The notes under the pieces are model-generated. The model made no database searches, was not told the origin of the DNA, and was given only the letters and a program-made list of their open reading frames with translations. A program made the position numbers and the translations under genes. From NCBI GenBank assembly GCA_028289135.1, contig JAQGGW010000004.1, positions 758-64,757 of the forward strand: a stretch of DNA of 64,000 nucleotides, in the 5' to 3' direction. The DNA comes from Candidatus Saccharimonadota bacterium. GTDB lineage: Bacteria > Patescibacteriota > Saccharimonadia > Saccharimonadales > JACDBH01. This document shows, piece by piece, positions 5,732-64,000 of this stretch. Every line of letters starts with the position of its first letter. Within the stretch, counting starts at the first letter, position 1.

Positions 5732-6244
5732 CTATTCGGTCTTTGCGGCCTTGGGGCCAACAAACTTTTCGCGTACCTGGAAAATCAGATAAAAGCCAAT
5801 TGCCGAGCCAATTAGTGACGACAAGAAACTGCTGACTCCGCGTCCATTAATAAGCAAAGTAATCACGCTATAAACCACGTTGAGAAGTGATCCTAAAAAG
5901 ATCAAATCCCAGCCAGTTTTTTGGCGTTTGGCGAGTTTGGGGTAGGCCATCAGCAATATTACCGCGTCAACAATCAGCAATATGATGCCAAGGGCAATAA
6001 ATAGTTTGTCTGTCCCGCTGATTCCAATGTTGGTATTTACTACTGTTCCATAGATTGTAACAATACTGTTGGCAACATGCACAAGGCGCCATAAGGCCAG
6101 TGCTGCAACCAGCTGAAGAATGCCAAAAACCAATGCCAACCAAGGCCAGATTTTTACTAAAGTTTCTTTTGTTTTATCTGATAATTTTGGCGCGTTTTTA
6201 TACCAGCCGCCAATTACGGTTTCTGCTTTTTTGACTAACTCCAT
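5732..6244 (-). CDS. hypothetical integral membrane protein (170 aa, about 4 TM helices)
   Basis: Hydrophobic segments include WPWLALVFGILQLVAALALW, LFIALGIILLIVDAVILLMAY and others. No motif recognised. Confidence 0.6.
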   Translation of the reverse strand: MELVKKAETVIGGWYKNAPKLSDKTKETLVKIWPWLALVFGILQLVAALALWRLVHVANSIVTIYGTVVNTNIGISGTDKLFIALGIILLIVDAVILLMAYPKLAKRQKTGWDLIFLGSLLNVVYSVITLLINGRGVSSFLSSLIGSAIGFYLIFQVREKFVGPKAAKTE

Positions 6245-7321: not shown

Positions 7322-10300
7322 ATGGGTGAATTTTCAAAAGAATACGACAAACTAAATGCCGAACAGAAAAAAGCCGTCGATGCCACCGAGGGTGCGGTGC
7401 TGGTTATTGCCGGCCCAGGGACAGGCAAAACCCAGCTGCTTTCGCTGCGCGTAGCAAACATTTTGGACAAGTCGGACTCCCAAGCTCAAAACATTTTGTG
7501 CCTGACTTTTACCAACAAAGCGTCCAACAACATGCAGCTGCGTCTAAGCCGTTTGGTTGGCCCATTGGCGCACAAAGTCATGATCAATACCTTCCACAGC
7601 TTTGCCGCCGAAGTTATGAATATGTATCCTGAATACTTTTGGCAGGGCGCCCGGCTAATTAATGTACCGACAGCCGTGCAGTACGAAATTATTACCGACA
7701 TATTGTCGGCCTTGCCGTTAGACAACCCGCTAGCCTTAAAATTTGCGGGACAATTTACCAGCACCAAAGACGTTTTGGATGGGCTAAAACTGGCCAAGGA
7801 AGCAGGCTTAACACCCGATAAATTGCGGGCGTTAATTACCCATAATATTAGCTATATCGACGAGGTCGAAGACTTGCTGGTAGAAATCTGCAGTGAAAGA
7901 CTGAGCTATAAAAAGCTCGACGAACTTGCCATGCAGATCGAGGAGCTGCCCGAGCAGCATACCGACGAAGTTACCCGCCCGCTTGTGGCACTTTCAACAG
8001 TTATTTTAGAATCTTTTGAAGCCGCGCACACAGCCGACGACGGCACCGACAGAACCAAAAACACCAGCGCCTGGAAAGCACGCTGGATCAAATCGGTAGA
8101 AGGCCAAAAAGGCATGTTTGAAGAGCGCAAACGCAATGCCTGGTGGTTGGCGCTGGCAGACGTATACGAAAGCTACCGGAGCGCATTGCACGAACGCGGA
8201 TACTATGACTTTTCGGACATGATTATTGAAGTGATTTCGCAGCTGGAACAAAACCCAGACATGTTGGCAGACATCCAGGAGCGCTTTCATTACGTTTTGA
8301 TTGACGAATTCCAAGACACCAATGCCGCGCAGCTGCGCCTAGCGCACCTTGTGGCCGACAGCTACGCCAGCGCCGGCAACCCAAACATTATGGCGGTGGG
8401 TGACGACGACCAGTCGATCTACAAATTTAACGGCGCCGAACTTAGCAACATGATGGGCTTTACGCGCAGCTATCCGCAGGCAAAAACTTTTGTTTTAACC
8501 GACAATTACCGCTCCAGCCAAGACGTTTTGGATATTTCGATGCAGGTGATTGCACAGGCCAGCGAACGCGTGACCACAAAGCACGCCGCCATAACCAAGG
8601 AGCTTGTTGCCAAGAACCCTCCGTCCAAAAAAAGCAGCATCCAGCATCTTTCATTCCCAACTAAAGAGCACCAATATTACGAAATTGCCAAGCAAATCAG
8701 CAAGGCGCAAAAAGAGGGAAGTGTGGCAGTGTTGGCCCGCAGCCATGACAGCCTGCGCGCCGTGGCGCACACGCTAAATCTGCAAAACGTACCAGTTCGT
8801 TATGAACAGCAGCAAAGCGTTTTAGAGCAGCCAATTGTGAAGCAAATTAGATTAATCGCCGAAATTATTATCGCCATAGCGGACGGCAACGAAAACCTTG
8901 TTAACACATTTATCCCAGAACTTTTAACTTATGAGGCGTGGAACATTAAGCCCTATACATTGTGGGAGCTGGCCATTGGCAACCGCGGCAAGGCGCACTG
9001 GCTTAAAACCCTGACCGACCACCCTGACGAGCATTTGCAGACAATCGGTAACTGGCTATTGTGGCTAGCTGGCAAGGCCAAAACAGAACCGCTGTGCAGG
9101 GTGCTGGAATTTATAATTGGGCTTAGCGCATCCGAACATTTAACAAGCCCGCTTAGACGATTTTATCTGGAAGCGGACGCTGTTGATACGCCGTATCTTG
9201 CCAGCATTTCAGCCGTGCGAAAGCTTACCGAAATGGCGCAGGAATTTAGCAGCCACGGATCGGCCACAGTGCAGGACTTTATACGCCTGCTGCACGTTAG
9301 CATTAACAATAACCAAACCATTACCGACCAGTCTTTGTTTGTAACCGCTGCCAATGCCGTTGAGCTCCTAACGATCCACAAGGCCAAGGGGCTTGAGTTT
9401 GACGCGGTGTTTATCGTGGATGCCATGGAGTCAAATTGGAAGCCTTCTGCGCGCGGGCGTAAGGCACCTTCCAACTTGCCGCTCAGGCCAAACGGTGATG
9501 ATTATGACGATTACGTGCGGCTGATGTTTGTGGCCATGACACGTGCCAAGCGCGATATTACAATTGCCAGCTACTATACGACCGGCAGCGGGGACGAAGC
9601 GGTGGCGTCATCTATTATCCGTGACATTATTCCAGCAACAATACTGGATTATAACGAAGCCAATGATGCTGCAAAAGTTTTGGAAACAACGTTAACATGG
9701 CCGCGGCTAGAAGGATCAGAAGAAAAAGCATTACTGGGCGAAATATTAGAAAATTATACCCTGAGCCCGTCAGCATTTTTGGACTTTTTGGATGTTGCCA
9801 AAGGCGGCCCGCAGTATTTTTTGGAAAAGTATTTACTTCGTTTGCCAGAAGCGCAGTCTGTGCCGGCGGCGTTTGGTAGCTCTATCCACACTGCACTAGA
9901 ACGTGCTCAGCAAATGGTGCTGGATGACAACTTTGAGCTTGGCGCCGTGTTGTCCGCTTACAAAGCAGCACTGCTTGAACAAGGCATGAGCAACAACGAC
10001 TTTGAACGCTACTTGGACCACGGCAAGAAAATTATTAGCCAGCTATTTGAAAAGTACGACCTTGATCTGCAAAAAACTGGACAGCCAGAAGTTAGCCTGC
10101 GCGCGCGTTTTGACAACGTTACTATCGCCGGCAAATTAGACCGCGCAGACACAAGCGGCACCGAGCTGTTAATTACCGATTACAAGACAGGCAAGCCGTT
10201 AACTTCACTACAGACCAAAAGCCAAGCACTTCAGCAAAAAGCTTGGCGGCACCGAACGCAGCTTGAGCTATATACATTTATGGCAAAAGAATCGGGTCAC

Positions 10301-10582: not shown

Positions 10583-11353
10583 TTAACGAGTGCGTCGTGC
10601 AGTTGTTGTTTTGCGACGAGCAGTTGTGCGGGGCTTTGCTGCAGGCTTGCGCTTTGCAGCAGTTGCAGCAGTCTTACGACGAGCAGGTGCTACAGATGTA
10701 GTTGTTGCAGCTGATGAACTAGCAGCAACTCTTGTAGATGGTGCAAACAAGAGCGCGTAGAGGTTCATACCAACTACCGCACCAACGATTGGACCAAAGA
10801 TGTCGGCGCGTCCCCATGTCTGGTTAGCGAGCGCGACAGCTGGGTTCAACGCAGCGTTTGATGCAAGTGAAGCGACTACAACACCAACAAATAATGAGGC
10901 GCCGGCAGTTGCTGCCATTTTAGCGCCTTCAAATTTTTGGTAAATCGCTGCTGTGATACCAAATGTAAACACAAGCGTACCAAGCATTTCAGCAACGAAA
11001 ACTTTCCATTCAAAACTCTTGCTAGCAATGCTTGCAAGTTTTTGGCCGGTAAAATATTCGGCCAAGCGCCATGCAGCCAAACCGCCGAGCATTTGAGCTG
11101 CAAGATATGCAAGCGCCTGCAAAGTCTGGATCTTACGCAAAGTCCACATACCGATTGTGACTGCAGGGTTAAAATGCGCGCCTGAAGTTGCGCTAAAAAC
11201 AAGCGTCAACAATAGGTAAGTAATTGCCGCGCTAAAGGCTACGAAATAGCCAATGCCAATTTGTGAACGTGCAACGTTAATGATTGCTGTTGCGAGGATA
11301 CCGGTGCCGAGAAATTCCGCTACTAACATAGCGATTTTAGAACGTACTGTCAT
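10583..11353 (-). CDS. MIP-family channel (aquaporin / glycerol facilitator) with a basic Ala/Thr/Arg/Lys-rich C-terminal tail
   Basis: Two NPA boxes (HFNPAVT, LNPAVA) and six hydrophobic segments. The last 50 aa or so read AATTTSVAPARRKTAATAAKRKPAAKPRTTARRKTTTARRTR. Confidence 0.85.
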   Translation of the reverse strand: MTVRSKIAMLVAEFLGTGILATAIINVARSQIGIGYFVAFSAAITYLLLTLVFSATSGAHFNPAVTIGMWTLRKIQTLQALAYLAAQMLGGLAAWRLAEYFTGQKLASIASKSFEWKVFVAEMLGTLVFTFGITAAIYQKFEGAKMAATAGASLFVGVVVASLASNAALNPAVALANQTWGRADIFGPIVGAVVGMNLYALLFAPSTRVAASSSAATTTSVAPARRKTAATAAKRKPAAKPRTTARRKTTTARRTR

Positions 11354-11460
11354 GTATACAAACCCTCCGTTAGTTTATTACCTACAATCATAATACGTTT
11401 TTATACTTTTGCAAATATTATCTGTAGAACACCTTGTTTTTACTGAACAAGAAACGGTAA

Positions 11461-11567
11461 CGTACACGAGTGCAGTTTGGCCGAAGAACGAGCACCGGAT
11501 TCGGAGTGTATAGGGAAATACATGCAGAAACGGAGCGGAGTTATTCGGTCAAAATGTGCCGTGTACG
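11461..11567 (-). repeat. intergenic structured repeat, type 1, copy A (candidate cis-acting RNA element)
   Basis: The closing helix is CGTACACG / CGTGTACG. It carries the conserved blocks GCACATTTTG, GCTCCG, CGGTGCT and AAACTGCACT shared with the copies at 17437 and 50148, and a central mini-hairpin GTATttccctATAC. It starts 1 nt after the atpC stop codon. Confidence 0.7.
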
Positions 11568-11993
11568 TTAGCGCCGTTTGTTTCTCTTCAAGCCAGCGAC
11601 TTGCAGGCGTACCGCATGTCTATCCATCAAACTTTGTGCGTGTTGTAATGACACTTGGTCTTTAGCCTCAGCCTTCATTTTCTTAGCCAACTCAAATGCC
11701 TTCTGCACTTCTTGTTCATTCAATTCATCTGCATGATCGGCTTCGTCAACCAAGATTTTTAGTTCGTCATTTTCGACCTGTACAGTACCGCCAGATATTG
11801 CAAAAACTTCGCGCTGGTCGTCACGCTCTCCAGCAGTTTTGCGCACCATAATCGCGCCGTGCGTTGCAACGCTAATTAGCGGCATGTGGCCGGGAAGCAC
11901 ACCGATTTCGCCGTCCAAAGTCGGGATCAAAACTTCGTATGCTTCGCCGTCAAATTTAACGCCGTCTAGTGTATATAAAACAAAGTGAATCAT
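11568..11993 (-). CDS. atpC: F1 ATP synthase subunit epsilon
   Basis: 141 aa with VLIPTLDGEIGVLPGHMPLISV, and it sits immediately after atpD. Confidence 0.88.
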   Translation of the reverse strand: MIHFVLYTLDGVKFDGEAYEVLIPTLDGEIGVLPGHMPLISVATHGAIMVRKTAGERDDQREVFAISGGTVQVENDELKILVDEADHADELNEQEVQKAFELAKKMKAEAKDQVSLQHAQSLMDRHAVRLQVAGLKRNKRR

Positions 11994-17407: not shown

Positions 17408-17436
17408 TTATTTATTCTCCAGGTCTAAGGATTTTT

Positions 17437-17540
17437 GTATATGAGTGCAGTTTGGGCGAAAAGCGAGCACCGTAAACGAGGCGTACGGGATGGTACGGTG
17501 AGTGCGGAGCGCAGATTTTCGTTCAAAATGTGCCATATAC
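17437..17540 (-). repeat. intergenic structured repeat, type 1, copy B, inside the atp operon (candidate cis-acting RNA element)
   Basis: The closing helix is GTATATG / CATATAC. The conserved blocks match copies A and C. The core is TCACC-GTACcatcccGTAC-GCCTC. The element occupies 104 nt of the 147-nt atpE-atpF spacer. Confidence 0.75.
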
Positions 17541-17554
17541 ATAAATCCTACTTA

Positions 17555-22402: not shown

Positions 22403-22432
22403 ATGTGGGCAAAGCCCAGCATTATACTTAGC

Positions 22433-22542
22433 CTCTCGGCTCATTTCGGCTTGAGACTTTGCGGTGCGCAGAAGCAGTACCCACATGTACAACTTCTTTG
22501 CGCTTCGCAGCCTCGCACCGAAATGAGCTCGAGTGTGGAATC
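22433..22542 (+). repeat. intergenic structured repeat, type 2, copy D (candidate cis-acting RNA element)
   Basis: A long helix GGCTCATTTCGG / CCGAAATGAGCT encloses TTGCGgtgCGCAG, the mini-hairpin GTACccacatGTAC and TTTGCGcttCGCAG. The 3' block is AGCTCGAGTGTGGAATC. It is collinear with the copy at 61468. Confidence 0.7.
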
Positions 22543-22560
22543 TGTGGTAAGCTCACCACT

Positions 22561-50053: not shown

Positions 50054-50147
50054 TACCTATACGATACCATTTCTTTTACTTACTAGAATATACTTTACTA
50101 AAAACCCGCCGATTCTTTATAGCCCGCAGATATCGATGGGTTTCGAA

Positions 50148-50247
50148 CGATAGTGCAGCTTGGGATGAAAGCCAAGCACCGAAGCGGAGGCGTATGGCAT
50201 GATACGGTGAGCATCGGAGCACAGGCTTTCGCCCAAGATGTGCATCG
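50148..50247 (-). repeat. intergenic structured repeat, type 1, copy C (candidate cis-acting RNA element)
   Basis: The closing helix is CGAT / ATCG, extendable imperfectly to 50142..50253. The second helix is CTTGGG..AAAGCC / GGCTTT..CCCAAG. The core is TCACC-GTATcatgccATAC-GCCTC, and the conserved blocks match copies A and B. Confidence 0.72.
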
Positions 50248-50265
50248 TGCGGAAGCCTCTCACAT

Positions 50266-50296
50266 AAAAAAGCCCGCTCTCTCAAGCGGGCTTTTT
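50266..50296 (-). terminator. intrinsic terminator downstream of the Asn-rich protein gene (bidirectional-capable)
   Basis: AAAAAAGCCCGC tctctcaa GCGGGCTTTTT, a perfect 7-bp GC-rich stem flanked by A and T runs. Confidence 0.7.
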
Positions 50297-50309
50297 CAGT
50301 AACCGTCAA

Positions 50310-51302
50310 TTAGTTGTTGATGACAGTAGTGTTGCTGTCGCCATTGTTGTTGCCAGCACCGCCTGATGCGCCTGCACCAGCAGTTGTGTTGCCAGAAACA
50401 TTGCTGTTTCCGCTAGTAGAAGTCTGACGAGTGAATGAGATGTTTCCAACGTTGTTGTTGTTCTGAACGTTAGTGTTGTTGTTTGAAACAATCGTTGCGT
50501 TTACAGGTGAGCTTGGGCCCTGTGTAGAGATGTTGGTAGTCTGACCAGCACCTGCGCCGCTGCCGCCGTGGACGCCTGGATCGCCAGCACCGCCGTTGTT
50601 AATACCAACGCTTGAACCAGTACCGTTGTTGTTACCAGCACCGCCTGAACCTGTGCCGCCAGCTGCTGTAGTGTTGCCAGAAGTGTTTACATTGCCGGTC
50701 TTTGAACCTTGGCCGGTAGTGTTAAGGCCAAGAACGTTGTTGTTGTTTGACTTGTTCTTGTTAGTGTTGTCGGACAATACAAGACCTACGCCTGAGTTTG
50801 GACCTTGTGTGCCGACATTTGTGCTGCCAACCATGTCCATTGGACCACAACCGTTGCCGTTATTAATAGCTACAGAAGTGTTGGTGCTATTGTTGTTGGT
50901 TGCGTTGCCGCTTGATGCGCCGCCCATTTTGCCCCAGCTAGACTGGATGTCGCCCATGTGAGCGCTAAAAGCTGCTGCCCATTCGCTATAAGTATGGCCT
51001 TGTGCTGCCCAAACACTTGGGTCCCAAGCGCCCCACGCGCCACCGCCGATGCCAGCAGTTGTATTACCAGAAACGTTGACGTTTCCAGTAGATGCGCTTT
51101 GATTGGTATTATTTACAGATGTAACATTGTTGTTGTTCTGAACGCTGCAGTTGTTGTTGGTCGACTCACTGATAGAGATTGGTGAGCTTGGACCCTGTGT
51201 TGACGCATTAACTCCTGCAAAGGCCATGCCTGTTGAACCAGTGAATAATGCAGTAATTGCTGCGACTGCGACTGTTGCTCCGCGTGGGAATAACTTCTTC
51301 AT
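50310..51302 (-). CDS. secreted Asn/Gly/Ser/Thr-rich protein with three internal repeats
   Basis: The signal peptide is MKKLFPRGATVAVAAITALFTGSTGMAFA. The repeat TQGP(S/N)S...NNNNV...TGN(V/S)N(V/T)SGNTTA(G/A)G occurs three times. Confidence 0.75.
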   Translation of the reverse strand: MKKLFPRGATVAVAAITALFTGSTGMAFAGVNASTQGPSSPISISESTNNNCSVQNNNNVTSVNNTNQSASTGNVNVSGNTTAGIGGGAWGAWDPSVWAAQGHTYSEWAAAFSAHMGDIQSSWGKMGGASSGNATNNNSTNTSVAINNGNGCGPMDMVGSTNVGTQGPNSGVGLVLSDNTNKNKSNNNNVLGLNTTGQGSKTGNVNTSGNTTAAGGTGSGGAGNNNGTGSSVGINNGGAGDPGVHGGSGAGAGQTTNISTQGPSSPVNATIVSNNNTNVQNNNNVGNISFTRQTSTSGNSNVSGNTTAGAGASGGAGNNNGDSNTTVINN

Positions 51303-59940: not shown

Positions 59941-59985
59941 AAAAAGAGTCTGTAGAGGGGGTGGGCACCGCTACAGACTCTTTTT
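59941..59985 (+). terminator. intrinsic terminator (bidirectional-capable)
   Basis: AAAAAGAGTCTGTAG agggggtgggcaccg CTACAGACTCTTTTT, with perfect 15-nt arms that include A and T runs. Confidence 0.7.
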
Positions 59986-59989
59986 AGGC

Positions 59990-60300
59990 TCAAGACAAGC
60001 TTAAGCCAATAAAACACCCTTCAACCCACCTTGAAGGCCTCCCCACACCATCTCTGGGCTTGTGAACGCTCTCGTATTGCGCTCAAAGTCCAGAGAAGGT
60101 GTGGGGCCCACTCGTGGTTGTCCGACATATCCTGGCCATCAAAAAGTGCGAGGGAGGAATGCGGGGTTAAAGGGGTTAGTCCGCTTTAGAACGTTTGCAC
60201 CTCTAAAGGGATGCGTAGCTAGATAAGTGGAGGGTAACAACTTATAAAGCACGTTCTAAAACAGCCTAACGATTTCACTTGGATTGCTCCAAATGAACGT
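59990..60300. ncRNA. unassigned, strongly structured non-coding region (candidate housekeeping or regulatory RNA)
   Basis: There is no ORF of 60 aa or more on either strand across about 500 nt. Hairpin CCTTCAA/TTGAAGG at 60018..60037. A 17-bp helix CCCCACACCATCTCTGG / CCAGAGAAGGTGTGGGG at 60041..60057 with 60090..60106. A long-range bipartite helix GTTAG..TTTAGAACGT / ACGTTCTAAA..CTAAC at 60175..60194 with 60251..60270. Confidence 0.35.
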
Positions 60301-60412
60301 TAAAATAGGGGTATAAGGTACATAAATCCCATAAAGAGACTCACGGATTGCTATTTTAGCAAACTTATGACATTATGTCAATACTTAAATACAAAAGAGG
60401 GTAGTTGTCAAT

Positions 60413-61261
60413 ATGCTAACGCTTACTTTACCAGAGATACCGCATGATCTTCGCCAGTTGGCGCAGCCGGTAGAAAAACTCCATATTATAGGTAATACAC
60501 TGGACGATCTTATGCAGCGTCCGCGCCTTGCAATTGTTGGCAGCCGCAAGATTACACCATATGGCAGGGGAGTCACCGAAAGCCTCACAGCCGAGCTCGT
60601 AAGCAAGGGCGTAGTAATTGTCAGCGGGCTGGCACTTGGGACTGATTCCATCGCCCACCAGGCATGTTTGGACGCTGGCGGCCAGACAATAGCAGTAATA
60701 GCTAGCGGCCCAGACGCTATCTATCCAGCCGGCCACACCAACCTTGCTAGGGAAATTGTGAAAAAAGGCGGCATTGTCGCCACCGAATACGATAAAGGCC
60801 ACAAACCATTTGCATGGGACTTTTTGGCGCGCAACCGTATAATTGCCGCTTTAAGCCAAGGCGTACTTGTTACAGAAGCGGCGGCCAAAAGCGGCTCACT
60901 AAACACCGCCAACCACGCGCTGCAGCTCGGCAAGCCAGTCTTTGCGGTGCCCGGCAACATCACCAACCCCTTAAGCGCAGGCTGCAATAACCTCATTAAA
61001 GCCGGCGCCATTCCTGTTACATGCGTCGAAGATATTCTAAATGCCTTGGAATGGTACGACTTGGCAGCGGCACCAAAAAAAATCTTAGGAGCAACCGATG
61101 AAGAAAACACCATTATTCAGCTTTTGCAGCACGGTGTTAGCGACGGGGCAGAACTACTCCTGAGAAGCGAGCTTGAGACTAGCCCCTTCAACCAAGCCCT
61201 GACCATGCTTGAAATTACTGGCAAAATCCGCCCGCTCGGCGCCAACCACTGGTCATTGTAA
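60413..61261 (+). CDS. dprA: DNA-processing protein DprA (Smf)
   Basis: LAIVGSRKITPYG...VIVSGLALGTDSIAHQ...GSLNTA is the Rossmann-like DprA core. Confidence 0.88.
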   Translation: MLTLTLPEIPHDLRQLAQPVEKLHIIGNTLDDLMQRPRLAIVGSRKITPYGRGVTESLTAELVSKGVVIVSGLALGTDSIAHQACLDAGGQTIAVIASGPDAIYPAGHTNLAREIVKKGGIVATEYDKGHKPFAWDFLARNRIIAALSQGVLVTEAAAKSGSLNTANHALQLGKPVFAVPGNITNPLSAGCNNLIKAGAIPVTCVEDILNALEWYDLAAAPKKILGATDEENTIIQLLQHGVSDGAELLLRSELETSPFNQALTMLEITGKIRPLGANHWSL

Positions 61262-61286
61262 CTACAGTAAGTGATACACTAATCTT

Positions 61287-61463
61287 ATGAAAATGCTTAT
61301 CTTTCTTGGCACCACTGTGGGCGGTGTACTTGGCGGGCTTTTTGGTCAAATACTTGATAAAGGTAATGGTCTAGGTGGCTGGAGCCTGTTATTTGGCGGT
61401 TTAGTAGGACCATTATTAGGTTTGTGGGCCGGCTATAAAATCGGCAAATACATGGCCGAATGA
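61287..61463 (+). CDS. small Gly-rich membrane protein (58 aa, below the track cutoff)
   Basis: Translated by hand: MKMLIFLGTTVGGVLGGLFGQILDKGNGLGGWSLLFGGLVGPLLGLWAGYKIGKYMAE. It has two glycine-zipper-like helices. Confidence 0.45.
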   Translation: MKMLIFLGTTVGGVLGGLFGQILDKGNGLGGWSLLFGGLVGPLLGLWAGYKIGKYMAE

Positions 61464-61467
61464 TCCA

Positions 61468-61588
61468 GGAATCCCACACTTGGCTATTTCCGCCCCGAGT
61501 CCTTGCGGTACGCAGTCACCATAATTAGATATATGCCTCCTTTGCGTTCCGCAGACTCAGAACGAAACTAGCTCGAGCGTGGAATCCC
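61468..61588 (+). repeat. intergenic structured repeat, type 2, copy E (candidate cis-acting RNA element)
   Basis: Collinear with copy D. The elements are GGCTATTTCCG / CGAAACTAGCT, TTGCGgtaCGCAG, TCACC-ataattagatatat-GCCTCC, TTTGCGttcCGCAG and AGCTCGAGCGTGGAATC. GGAATCCC occurs at both ends (61468 and 61581). Confidence 0.7.
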
Positions 61589-61888
61589 TGAAGTTGTGAG
61601 GAAAAATTTCTCAGTTTTGTGTTTGAAACTTGACGGGTACACCTTTGATACAGTAGGGTAAGGAGCTATATGCCAATTCAGGCATGACTTTAACCATAAG
61701 TTTGATAGACTACAGTGTACATGAACGCGTACCAGAATAACTTACTAGGCATAAAATGAATTATTTGCGAGATAAAATTAACAAAGTGCGACAAGAGGTA
61801 GCATTAGCTACATTGCGAAGCAGTTTGTTAATTTTAGCCGAAAATAGTCATTTTAGGGCAGGAAGGATATTCCGGTACGCGTTCTAAT

Positions 61889-64000
61889 ATGACAAAAAAC
61901 CTTGTGATCGTAGAGAGCCCCGCAAAGGCCAAGACAATCGAGAAGTACTTGGGCAAAGACTACACCGTTAAAAGTAGCTTTGGCCACATTCGTGATTTGC
62001 CAAAAAAGGGTCTCAGCATCGACAAGGCCAACAATTTTGAACCAACCTACGAAGTTAGCCCAGAGAAAAAGAAGGTTGTTGCGGAGCTTAAAAAGCTCGC
62101 CAAAGGAGCAGAAGTCTGGCTCGCAACTGATGAAGACCGCGAAGGGGAGGCCATTGCCTGGCACCTTGCTATGGCTCTTGGACTTGATACCAAAAAGACA
62201 AAGCGCATTGTTTTTCACGAAATTACCAAGCCAGCCATCTTGGCCGCAATCGAAAACCCTCGTTTGGTTGATTTGCATCTTGTAGACGCCCAGCAAGCCC
62301 GCCGTGTGCTTGACCGTCTTGTTGGCTACGAACTCTCACCAGTACTCTGGAAAAAGGTCCGCGCTGGATTGTCCGCAGGACGAGTTCAATCTGTTGCCGT
62401 CCGCCTTATTGTGGAGCGCGAACGCGCGATTGCCGCCCACCAGGCCGAAAGCAGCTATAAAATTATCGGCGACTTTTTAAGTAATAAAGAAAGTTTCAGC
62501 GCCGAGCTAAACACCAAGCCAGCTACCATTGAAGAATCCAAAAAGTTCCTAGAAGCCAACATTGGTGCCACCTATACCGTAAAAAGCGTCACCAAAAAGC
62601 CCGGCAGCCGTAACCCAGGCGCGCCGTTTACCACCTCAACACTCCAGCAAGAAGCCGCCCGCCGCCTTGGCTTTACCGTCCGTCAGACCATGTCCGTGGC
62701 CCAGCGCCTGTACGAAAGCGGAAAGATCACTTACATGCGTACCGACAGCACCATCTTGTCTGGCTTGGCAATTAACGCGGCCGAACAATACATCAAGAAA
62801 GAATTTGGCGACAAGTATCACACCTTGCGCCAGTTCAAGACCAAAGATTCCAGCGCCCAAGAAGCCCACGAAGCTATCCGCCCAACCGACTTTACGACCG
62901 AAACCGCCGGCGAAGACTCCCAGCAAGAAAAGCTTTATAAACTCATTTGGCAGCGCGCCCTCTCAAGCCAGATGTCACCAGCCGTTACTGACAAAACAGA
63001 TGTCAATATCACCATTTCCACGCGTCCAGAGGTGTTTGTTGCCAAAGGCGAGATATTAGTCTTTGACGGTTTCCTTCGGGTCTACGGCGGCGGCAAGGAC
63101 GACAGCCTTCTTCCTGACCTTAAAGAGGGTCAAGCCCTCCAGAACGAGCGTATTACAGCCACAGAGACCTTTAGCCGCGCTCCAGCCCGCTACTCGGAAG
63201 CATCACTTGTTAAAGCATTAGAAGAGATGGGAATTGGCCGTCCAAGCACCTACGCGCCGACCATTTCGACCGTCCAGGATAGGGGTTATGTTGAAAAGCA
63301 GGACCTTGAAGGCAATGAACGCGATGTCCGCAGCGCCGTATTAGTAAATGGCACAGTCAAAGAAGACACCGTCAAAGAGCGCTATGGCGCCGACAGAGGC
63401 AAACTGATGCCAACCGCTGTTGCCGAAGTAACTACCGACTTCTTAACCAAATACTTTGGGCCAATTGTAGACTATGACTTTACCGTCAAAGCCGAAAAAG
63501 AGTTCGACGATATTGCAGATGGTAAAACCGCCTGGAACAAGATGATTGCCGAGTTTTATAACAGCGACTTTAAGCCGCTAATTAAGGCATCCGCCGATGT
63601 TACCCGCGAAGAAACCTCACAGTCCCGTACACTCGGCACAGATCCAAAGAGTAAAAAACCAATCATCGTCCGTTTTGGCCGCTACGGCCCTATGCTCCAA
63701 AAGGGTGAGACCTCTGATGAGGAAAAGCCTGCTTTCGCCCCGCTTCCTAAGGAAACAACCATGGATAATGTCACGCTAGAGCAAGCTTTGCCAATGTTTG
63801 ACTTGCCAAAAACCATTGGTGCGCTCGAAGACGGCCGTCCGATTTTGGGCAACATAGGCCGTTTTGGCCCTTATATCCAGGTAGACAAGGTCTATGTGTC
63901 GCTAAAAGAGCATGACCCATTGACCATCACCGAAGAAGAAGCCCGCGAATTATTTGCCGAAAAGCTAGTCCAGATTGCCGAGCGCAACGTTGCCGACTTC
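61889..64000 (+). CDS. topA: DNA topoisomerase I (partial, continues beyond the window)
   Basis: Translated by hand: MTKNLVIVESPAKAKTIEKYLGKDYTVKSSFGHIRDLP...WLATDEDREGEAIAWHL is a Toprim domain. The frame stays open for 704 codons to the window edge, which is why it is absent from the track. Confidence 0.92.
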   Translation, partial: MTKNLVIVESPAKAKTIEKYLGKDYTVKSSFGHIRDLPKKGLSIDKANNFEPTYEVSPEKKKVVAELKKLAKGAEVWLATDEDREGEAIAWHLAMALGLDTKKTKRIVFHEITKPAILAAIENPRLVDLHLVDAQQARRVLDRLVGYELSPVLWKKVRAGLSAGRVQSVAVRLIVERERAIAAHQAESSYKIIGDFLSNKESFSAELNTKPATIEESKKFLEANIGATYTVKSVTKKPGSRNPGAPFTTSTLQQEAARRLGFTVRQTMSVAQRLYESGKITYMRTDSTILSGLAINAAEQYIKKEFGDKYHTLRQFKTKDSSAQEAHEAIRPTDFTTETAGEDSQQEKLYKLIWQRALSSQMSPAVTDKTDVNITISTRPEVFVAKGEILVFDGFLRVYGGGKDDSLLPDLKEGQALQNERITATETFSRAPARYSEASLVKALEEMGIGRPSTYAPTISTVQDRGYVEKQDLEGNERDVRSAVLVNGTVKEDTVKERYGADRGKLMPTAVAEVTTDFLTKYFGPIVDYDFTVKAEKEFDDIADGKTAWNKMIAEFYNSDFKPLIKASADVTREETSQSRTLGTDPKSKKPIIVRFGRYGPMLQKGETSDEEKPAFAPLPKETTMDNVTLEQALPMFDLPKTIGALEDGRPILGNIGRFGPYIQVDKVYVSLKEHDPLTITEEEARELFAEKLVQIAERNVADF

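Follow-up and report, generated by a model that had tools for sequence, protein, structure and literature searches.

A dispersed family of hairpin repeats in Candidatus Saccharibacteria, examined at the copy upstream of topA

ERIC/IRU (~127 bp), Correia and RUP elements are imperfect palindromes along their whole length, which lie between genes, often just after stop codons. They are co-transcribed with their neighbours, polymorphic for presence or absence, and carry conserved terminal inverted repeats, to which defined target duplications are added in the case of Correia and RUP. The attC sites of integrons are imperfect hairpins of 60–140 nt, placed antisense directly after an ORF, for which structure prevails over sequence and one folded strand is recognised. 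Intervening sequences (IVSs) are long additional hairpins in place of the loop of a peripheral rRNA helix, with a sporadic phylogenetic distribution; they are restricted to rRNA helices, and no dispersed intergenic families of them are known. REPINs are doublets of REP sequences that form hairpins; RAYT transposases mobilise them (Bertels & Rainey 2011, PMC3116915), and the cognate RAYT, a Y1/IS200-like transposase, is encoded once in the genome and flanked by REPs. REPINs have two highly conserved ends (the REP 16-mers) around a variable middle, and their copies within a genome are near-identical; compensatory changes are common, the folded single strand is thought to be the substrate, and persistence at a given locus is long (PMC3116915).

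The sequence analysed here, referred to as the window, is the whole stretch of 64,000 nucleotides. It belongs to a Candidatus Saccharibacteria (TM7) MAG: its closest TopA relatives are all from Saccharibacteria, and its AtpF carries the same annotation. Upstream of topA the window contains a complete imperfect hairpin, element E (Table 1). Folded as RNA, E reaches −73.6 kcal/mol on the minus strand (z −9.96) and −47.6 kcal/mol on the plus strand (z −4.67), and it scores 120 bits with the covariance model (CM) R2. The coordinates given in the initial annotation are confirmed: the TGA stop codon of the small ORF58 occupies 61461–61463, 4 nt upstream of the first GGAATCCC, and the ATG of topA follows at 61889.

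Table 1. Positions in the window of element E, its parts, its neighbours and the other copies of the family.
Feature	Position	Strand	Basis or remark
Element E, complete imperfect hairpin, 129 nt	61464–61592	better-folding strand: minus	fold, CM, empty sites
5' GGAATCCC (plus-strand reading), one arm of the basal helix	61468–61475		pairs with 61581–61588 in the minus-strand fold
3' GGAATCCC (plus-strand reading), second arm of the basal helix	61581–61588		within the GTGGAATC block common to copy D
Apex of E: short stem-loop (61520–61535) and flanking internal loop	61516–61543	−	family-wide core
ORF58, 58-aa glycine-zipper ORF, host gene outside the element	61287–61463	+	weak Pfam match, Gly-zipper_Omp
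Conserved block between E and topA, 74 nt	61649–61722	+	93% identical in L183
Copy A, between atpC (stop 11568–70) and the aquaporin gene	11452–11570	+	CM R2, 125 bits; Pfam
Copy B, inside the atp operon, between the atpE stop and the atpF SD	17425–17548	+	CM, 134 bits; Pfam
Copy D, between terC and the nuclease gene	22432–22546	−	closest sister of E (~69% identity); CM, Pfam
Copy C, between an ABC-transporter gene and the gene of a 330-aa repetitive protein	50135–50258	+	CM, 120 bits

A BLAST of the E region against the window gave a sister at 22435–22542 (copy D, 69% identity), and an unfiltered covariance model made from D and E added 11452–11566, 17427–17540 and 50135–50250, all on the plus strand (copies A, B and C). 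These are the five diverged copies of the family in the 64 kb, and they correspond to copies A–E of the initial annotation. At least nine further copies are present in Candidatus Saccharibacteria relatives. Those of L014 (2–3 copies), L009, L020 and L049 came from the second model (R2), and those of L006, L012, L179, L180 and L183 were added by inspection or by unfiltered search. The unit is one long hairpin of 115–135 nt (~125). The five window copies align as a single hairpin of 45 pairs, 30 of which show compensatory changes, with 91.6% of the cells paired; none of 500 shuffles reaches this pairing and slid controls give 33–45%. When 12 copies, drawn from six genomes, were aligned with the model, pairing covered 90.3% of the cells and 38/45 pairs show compensatory changes, 0/500 shuffles being as good and slid controls giving 33–47%. 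Copies of the same genome are only 50–80% identical to each other, and so bear no trace of a burst in the very recent past.

We found no member of the family in 1.05 Mb of more distant Saccharibacteria loci collected by a metagenome scan via TopA, where the closest TopA match was 72% identical. On the sequences compared, only one clade of Candidatus Saccharibacteria has the family. A viral origin was considered and rejected: the motif GAGGCGTAY-N4-8-RTACGGTGA matched 17 IMG/VR sequences, of which none scored with the covariance model, so that these matches are due to chance. At the gathering threshold Rfam 15 recognised three tRNAs in the whole window and nothing else, and a search of 61400–61900 at E≤10 gave nothing relevant. 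The family is a dispersed bacterial hairpin repeat in a phylum for which literature searches gave no such description, be it in Saccharibacteria or in other Patescibacteria/CPR.

Conservation is distributed unequally along the hairpin. The 32 pairs of the lower stem all vary while pairing is kept. The upper part is conserved and reads, on the better-folding strand (hereafter “element-sense”, the minus strand for E), CGAG-G(N)ANC-..A..-GAG-GYRUAY-loop-RUACGGUGA-..-G(N)ANC-GCAG, within which GAG..GYRUAY-loop-RUACGGUGA is the family-wide core. Helix 2 of the apex (G(N)ANC/G(N)ANC) has 5 bp and an A.A mismatch inside, the apical internal loop is symmetric with tandem G.A/A.G, and the apical GYRUAY stem is short with invariant U-A and A-U pairs; the invariant columns are the UA/AU of this stem and the G-C/C-G of helix 2. 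A K-turn at the apex was considered, but the GA/GA loop is symmetric and lacks a 3-nt bulge beside a C-helix, which excludes a canonical K-turn. For E the apical loop reads GGAGG/GGUGA on the minus strand, i.e. TCACC/GCCTCC on the plus strand, and around the mini-hairpin TCACC lies at 61516–61520 and GCCTCCTTT at 61535–61543. Copies B (17415–17550) and C (50123–50260) do carry TCACC...GCCTC at the homologous place, as had been noticed earlier. The ends show across the family a weak GGnUU...AAgCC consensus and are otherwise not conserved.

The two strands of the element are not equivalent. The same element strand folds better in 14/14 copies tested, by 4–23 kcal/mol. Over 12 copies we counted 51 G:U pairs on element-sense against 14 on its complement, and in the five window copies 25 GU/UG against 3 AC/CA on element-sense. 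Element-sense is also ~62% purine, with purine-rich loops. A background mutational skew is not supported as the source of the G:U asymmetry, the GC skew of the intergenic sense strand being +0.06 (G>C), and a transcription-associated C-to-T bias would act opposite to the observed strand asymmetry. We conclude that the predicted structure is selected on one strand only.

The initial annotation described GGAATCCC as an 8-bp terminal direct repeat of E and a possible trace of a target-site duplication (TSD). The sequence is indeed present at both ends. It differs from its own reverse complement GGGATTCC by two transitions only (i.e. it is a near-palindrome), and in the minus-strand fold its two copies make up the basal helix, pairing together with two G:U wobbles. 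What had been taken for a “terminal direct repeat” is thus, in the predicted fold, the foot of the stem. Nor is GGAATCCC in excess: it occurs three times in the window against 1.05 expected, a count reached in 10/100 shuffles, which is not significant. Copy D (22422–22558) has the 3' block GTGGAATC and lacks the 5' GGAATCCC.

The check for empty sites proposed with that description was run and proved decisive: E is missing at the orthologous site in L183 and L002. In L183 (DprA 94% identical, flanking genes 83–87% identical in nucleotides) the site reads ...GCAGAATAG/TTGCAAAGACCTCAAATTTAAAG/TAGGGTAAGGAGC..., and ORF58 and topA, only 96 nt apart from stop to ATG, have neither the element nor GGAATCCC between them. 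In L002 (TopA 92% identical) ORF58 is followed by a 131-nt spacer before topA, likewise without element or GGAATCCC. Since the empty sites lack GGAATCCC, both copies of it arrived with the element, and its reading as a target-site duplication is refuted; the suggestion of mobility, for its part, holds. The other window copies are also missing in close relatives. The spacer at site C is 77 nt in L183 vs 256 nt in the window, i.e. the copy is absent. At site B the atpE–atpF spacer is 19–20 nt in L179, L181 and L182 vs 147 nt in the window, and at site D the spacer between terC and the nuclease (SNase) gene is 17 nt in L181, while in L182 the two genes overlap; copies B and D are therefore absent in L179–L182, these spacers being too short to hold them. 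The atpC–MIP spacer of L180 and L181 (site A) has no detectable copy. All five window copies are thus specific to the lineage of the window.

Conversely, relatives have copies of their own. L183 carries one at 5969–6107, directly after the ancestral ATG of der/engA, which the window does not have. In L183 the apparent start codon of der is now a GUG which, together with the AAGGAG before it (AAGGAG-N6-GUG), comes from the 3' arm of the hairpin; SD and start codon are thereby sequestered in the stem, hence a possible translational control. Further copies occupy two divergent spacers in L180 and L179. In L006, L009, L012 and L014 a copy, accompanied by a side hairpin, lies inside the loop of a peripheral CTAAC...GTTAG hairpin of a conserved ncRNA; in 12 other relatives, including the window, the same loop is 15–65 nt long with one or two short hairpins only.

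No direct repeat of 6 nt or more is common to both flanks of any copy. At the three comparable junctions the repeats are of 0–3 nt, namely TGA at E, possibly TAG at B, and G at der; the TGA at E (61461–63 and 61589–91) is indistinguishable from chance, and these three junctions share no target motif. Among the ~55 ORFs of the window no transposase, RT, integrase or HUH domain was found, so that the element is non-autonomous, at least locally. Judging from the occupied and empty sites, the family is mobile.

Position and orientation of the copies show a clear pattern. All are intergenic or within non-coding RNA. Eight of them (A, B, C, D, E, L014a, L020 and L049) lie 0–70 nt after a stop codon, 5/8 within 6 nt, and all eight are antisense to the gene that ends there (two-sided binomial p = 0.008). 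Copies A, C and D are antisense to both of their neighbours (atpC and the aquaporin gene for A, terC and the nuclease gene for D), and copy B to the atp operon. The sense copies are found elsewhere: in the der 5' UTR of L183, directly downstream of the der promoter; in the divergent spacers of L179 and L180, 56–70 nt upstream of genes of the same strand; and within the ncRNA of L006, L009, L012 and L014, where they are sense to that RNA. In the window the orientation tracks gene direction through three strand switches, thus it is not an effect of the replication strand. A replication-linked orientation of the IS200/IS605 type was accordingly discarded: it would need three switches in 64 kb, and the cumulative GC skew shows no origin or terminus.

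At the E locus itself ORF58 is conserved without the element in L002 and L183, which led us to reject a reading of ORF58 and E as a small-ORF or type I toxin-antitoxin pair. The topA promoter (aTGACt-N17-TGaTAGACT) is probably contained in the conserved block that separates E from topA. As E precedes this promoter-like block, it is outside the topA leader, and we see no indication of topA regulation by E. No terminator-like site was found by a scan of 61200–61950 and no U-run follows E on either strand. Copy C directly adjoins a canonical bidirectional intrinsic terminator (50266–50300, AAAAAAGCCCGCTCTCTCAAGCGGGCTTTTT); as the genome uses ordinary terminators of this kind, the hairpin repeat is dispensable as terminator.

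Taking these results together, we consider it rather probable that E arose by an insertion specific to its lineage, and that the repeat to which it belongs is a mobile, non-autonomous hairpin under structural constraint, REPIN- or MITE-like. A trans-acting factor would copy or move the element by recognising element-sense as a folded single strand, either ssDNA or RNA, and the apex would be the determinant of this recognition. E would have landed as a passenger right after the stop of the dprA–ORF58 unit, upstream of the topA promoter. Any co-transcript that reaches it would carry the weaker, antisense hairpin; downstream of genes, selection would retain only those insertions whose orientation gives the mRNA this weaker form. 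The pattern of position and orientation fits a pure mobility model only through such a selection on orientation. Other points also count against this explanation: the ends are not conserved, and the TSD or terminal motif typical of transposase-driven MITEs and REPINs is absent; the copies within a genome are too divergent for a recent burst, and the ORFs of the window include no identified mobilising gene; moreover the orthologous copies of four species keep structure and apex despite large divergence, which suggests an in-situ selection beyond selfish spread. The latter copies, borne by the ncRNA, would be at home in an explanation that we find unlikely overall, namely that element-sense is a functional structured RNA module (with, e.g., the tandem-G.A apex as a protein-binding site) expressed from any incoming promoter, its own, that of the host RNA or the divergent activity of a neighbouring one, dispersal being secondary. 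The G:U pairs and purine-rich loops on element-sense in all copies, stems that covary between genomes beneath an apex of conserved sequence, the sense position of the L006, L009, L012 and L014 copies behind a TTGACA-N17-TAAAAT promoter (11/12), the sense copy in the der leader of L183, and the fact that the 5' side of A, C and E faces the promoter region of the neighbouring gene all point in this direction. But upstream of A, B, C and E no element-sense promoter is better than 8/12, and the 10/12 site of D is inside the neighbouring ORF. An independent antisense transcript is unsupported for B, within the atp operon, and for D, 15 nt from the next start codon. As all five window copies are missing in close relatives, none is an essential conserved gene, and the module has no Rfam relative. 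A tentative reading, to which we attach a low probability, is a strand-specific element in which a dedicated protein would read the tandem-G.A apex of the folded strand (ssDNA, cDNA or RNA), and which would move without terminal repeats or TSD, its orientation being coupled to host transcription (antisense downstream of a gene, sense within a leader or an ncRNA). If true, it would constitute a mobility mechanism, or a dispersed RNA–protein module, specific to Patescibacteria and nested in places inside the conserved ~405-nt ncRNA.

The insertion of a mobile hairpin, which remains our preferred reading, has also to be weighed against functions exerted on the opposite strand. The hairpin could act in cis at the 3' end of the host mRNA, on the gene-sense strand, as a terminator, a block to 3' exonucleases or an RNase III site, roles that REP and ERIC-type repeats play in enterobacteria. 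This would account for the eight copies placed just after stop codons, for copy A, which follows the last gene of the atp operon with its base flanked by AAACGG...CCGUUUCUUGUU, and for copy B after atpE, where differential expression is plausible; the gene-sense strand, besides, still folds significantly (z about −4.7 to −5). We nevertheless hold it to be quite improbable, because the gene-sense strand carries A.C mismatches where selection would tolerate G:U (25 vs 3 and 51 vs 14 in the counts above), an asymmetry that the background strand skew (+0.06) fails to explain; because E has no U-tract or terminator-like site and C has a separate canonical terminator beside it; and because close relatives manage without the element at all five sites. 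As for a MITE with an 8-bp TSD whose core would mimic the 16S anti-Shine-Dalgarno tail and pair with ribosome-binding sites, as proposed at the outset, we judge it very improbable. GGAATCCC does stand at both ends, the plus-strand fold leaves TCACC...GCCUCCUUU unpaired, and a duplex with the consensus SD is possible (−13.9 kcal/mol). However, beyond the empty sites free of GGAATCCC and the pairing of the two 8-mers as basal stem, such a repeat is lacking in D and in every other copy. At the position of the supposed mimic CCUCC is present in 2/11 copies checked and CCUC in 4/11; what is conserved there is the GAG/GA tandem purine loop of the opposite strand, and it is the strand reading GGAGG/GGUGA that folds better in every copy tested. 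No SD-like motif occurs within 20 nt of the start of ORF58 or topA, and the core forms duplexes with the local leaders no better than with arbitrary sequence. Ribosome mimicry by E is thus without evidence.

By analogy, the family is most like REPINs or MITEs of the ERIC/Correia type, yet it lacks their conserved ends, TSD and near-identical copies, and the window contains no cognate transposase. With REPINs it shares a non-autonomous, multi-copy, extragenic long hairpin of ~100 nt with compensatory changes, which can stay at one locus for long; it differs from them by a conserved apex and variable ends, by the divergence of the copies within a genome, by the absence of Y1_Tnp or any other transposase domain from the ~55 ORFs of the window, compared with REP–RAYT, and by its host, a lineage of Patescibacteria. 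The resemblance to ERIC, Correia and RUP lies in size, in the palindrome that spans the whole element, in the sites after stop codons and in the presence/absence polymorphism at orthologous sites, whereas the lack of TSD and of conserved ends, and the one-strand signature with a conserved apex, are atypical for those elements. The one-strand, structure-over-sequence logic and the antisense position after an ORF recall attC. Unlike attC sites, however, the base sequences differ among copies and do not fit R''/R' (RYYYAAC/GTTRRRY), neither a cassette array nor intI occurs in the window, and the copies, which take either chromosomal orientation, are dispersed between housekeeping genes. Insertion into the conserved ncRNA of L006, L009, L012 and L014 is reminiscent of IVSs. 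An intrinsic terminator, a GC-rich hairpin followed by a U-tract, is again different, 61200–61950 having no terminator-like site.

Genomes of Saccharibacteria and other CPR are of ~1 Mb and thought to be streamlined and poor in repeats. Here we find a hairpin family with five copies in 64 kb and turnover between close relatives, whose insertion targets include an essential operon (atp), a gene leader, in which the copy supplies SD and start codon, and a conserved ncRNA. As a marker it may allow the genome dynamics of these uncultured organisms to be followed at strain level, and it may serve as a model for the way in which compact genomes tolerate insertions, i.e. compact hairpins only and in a preferred orientation. 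Its architecture, with a conserved apex, a one-strand structure and no terminal signals, points to a mechanism of recognition or mobility.

Several neighbouring features were recorded during this analysis. The conserved ncRNA-like gene of ~405 nt lies in the window at 59941–60381 on the minus strand, between a deacetylase gene and dprA. It has a promoter at 60381–60353 of the minus strand (TTGACA-N17-TAAAAT with TG, i.e. an extended −10; 11/12 matches) and ends with a terminator-like hairpin and U-run (59985–59941). In its loop this terminal hairpin contains GGUGGG (plus strand), complementary to CCCACC in the loop of the hairpin next to it (60018–60037). At least 17 relatives share the gene, for which Rfam gives no match even at E≤10 and ARAGORN no tmRNA call. 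Its minus-strand assignment comes from the promoter, from the G:U evidence and from alifold (−71.8 vs −57.3). A reading of the region as a plus-strand RNase P RNA, suggested by a resemblance of motifs, was rejected: it is contradicted by the same three lines of evidence, and neither Rfam nor ARAGORN gives a match.

Other hairpins occur around these loci. At 61723–61884, up to 4 nt from the topA ATG, lies an AT-rich, near-perfect hairpin of 162 nt, with a fold energy (−67 kcal/mol) that hardly differs between the strands; being downstream of the promoter-like block, it is in the topA leader. It belongs to another family than E and is precisely absent in L183 (…ACTACACTATACATATAT/ATG) and in L002. 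L009 has at 9652–9750, between dprA and topA, a near-perfect palindrome with 25-bp arms, which was considered as an orthologue of the E site and proved unrelated. Equally unrelated to the E family are the GC-rich hairpins of L183 between dprA and ORF58 (10850–10940) and an AT-rich hairpin of 180 nt in the conserved ncRNA of L002 (8447–8622). The genomes of these relatives seem generally prone to hairpin-shaped insertions.

Some observations concern the genes of the window. The minus-strand ORF at 38–793 (251 aa) has a GIY-YIG nuclease domain and overlaps a tRNA call (633–704, minus); possible readings are a homing-endonuclease-like gene that adjoins or occupies a tRNA locus, and a mis-set ORF start. 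The 330-aa ORF beside copy C (50310–51302, minus) has no Pfam match and contains internal DNA repeats of AACGTTGTTGTTGTT type spaced by 285/390 nt; it is probably a repetitive Asn/Thr-rich surface protein. At four-fold degenerate sites the coding strand has C>G (skew −0.29) and T>A, and whole coding strands have A>T. An SD-like 4-mer is found upstream of only 20/45 genes and several promoters lie a few nt from the start codon (der, and topA in L183), which suggests that leaderless or short-leader mRNAs are frequent.
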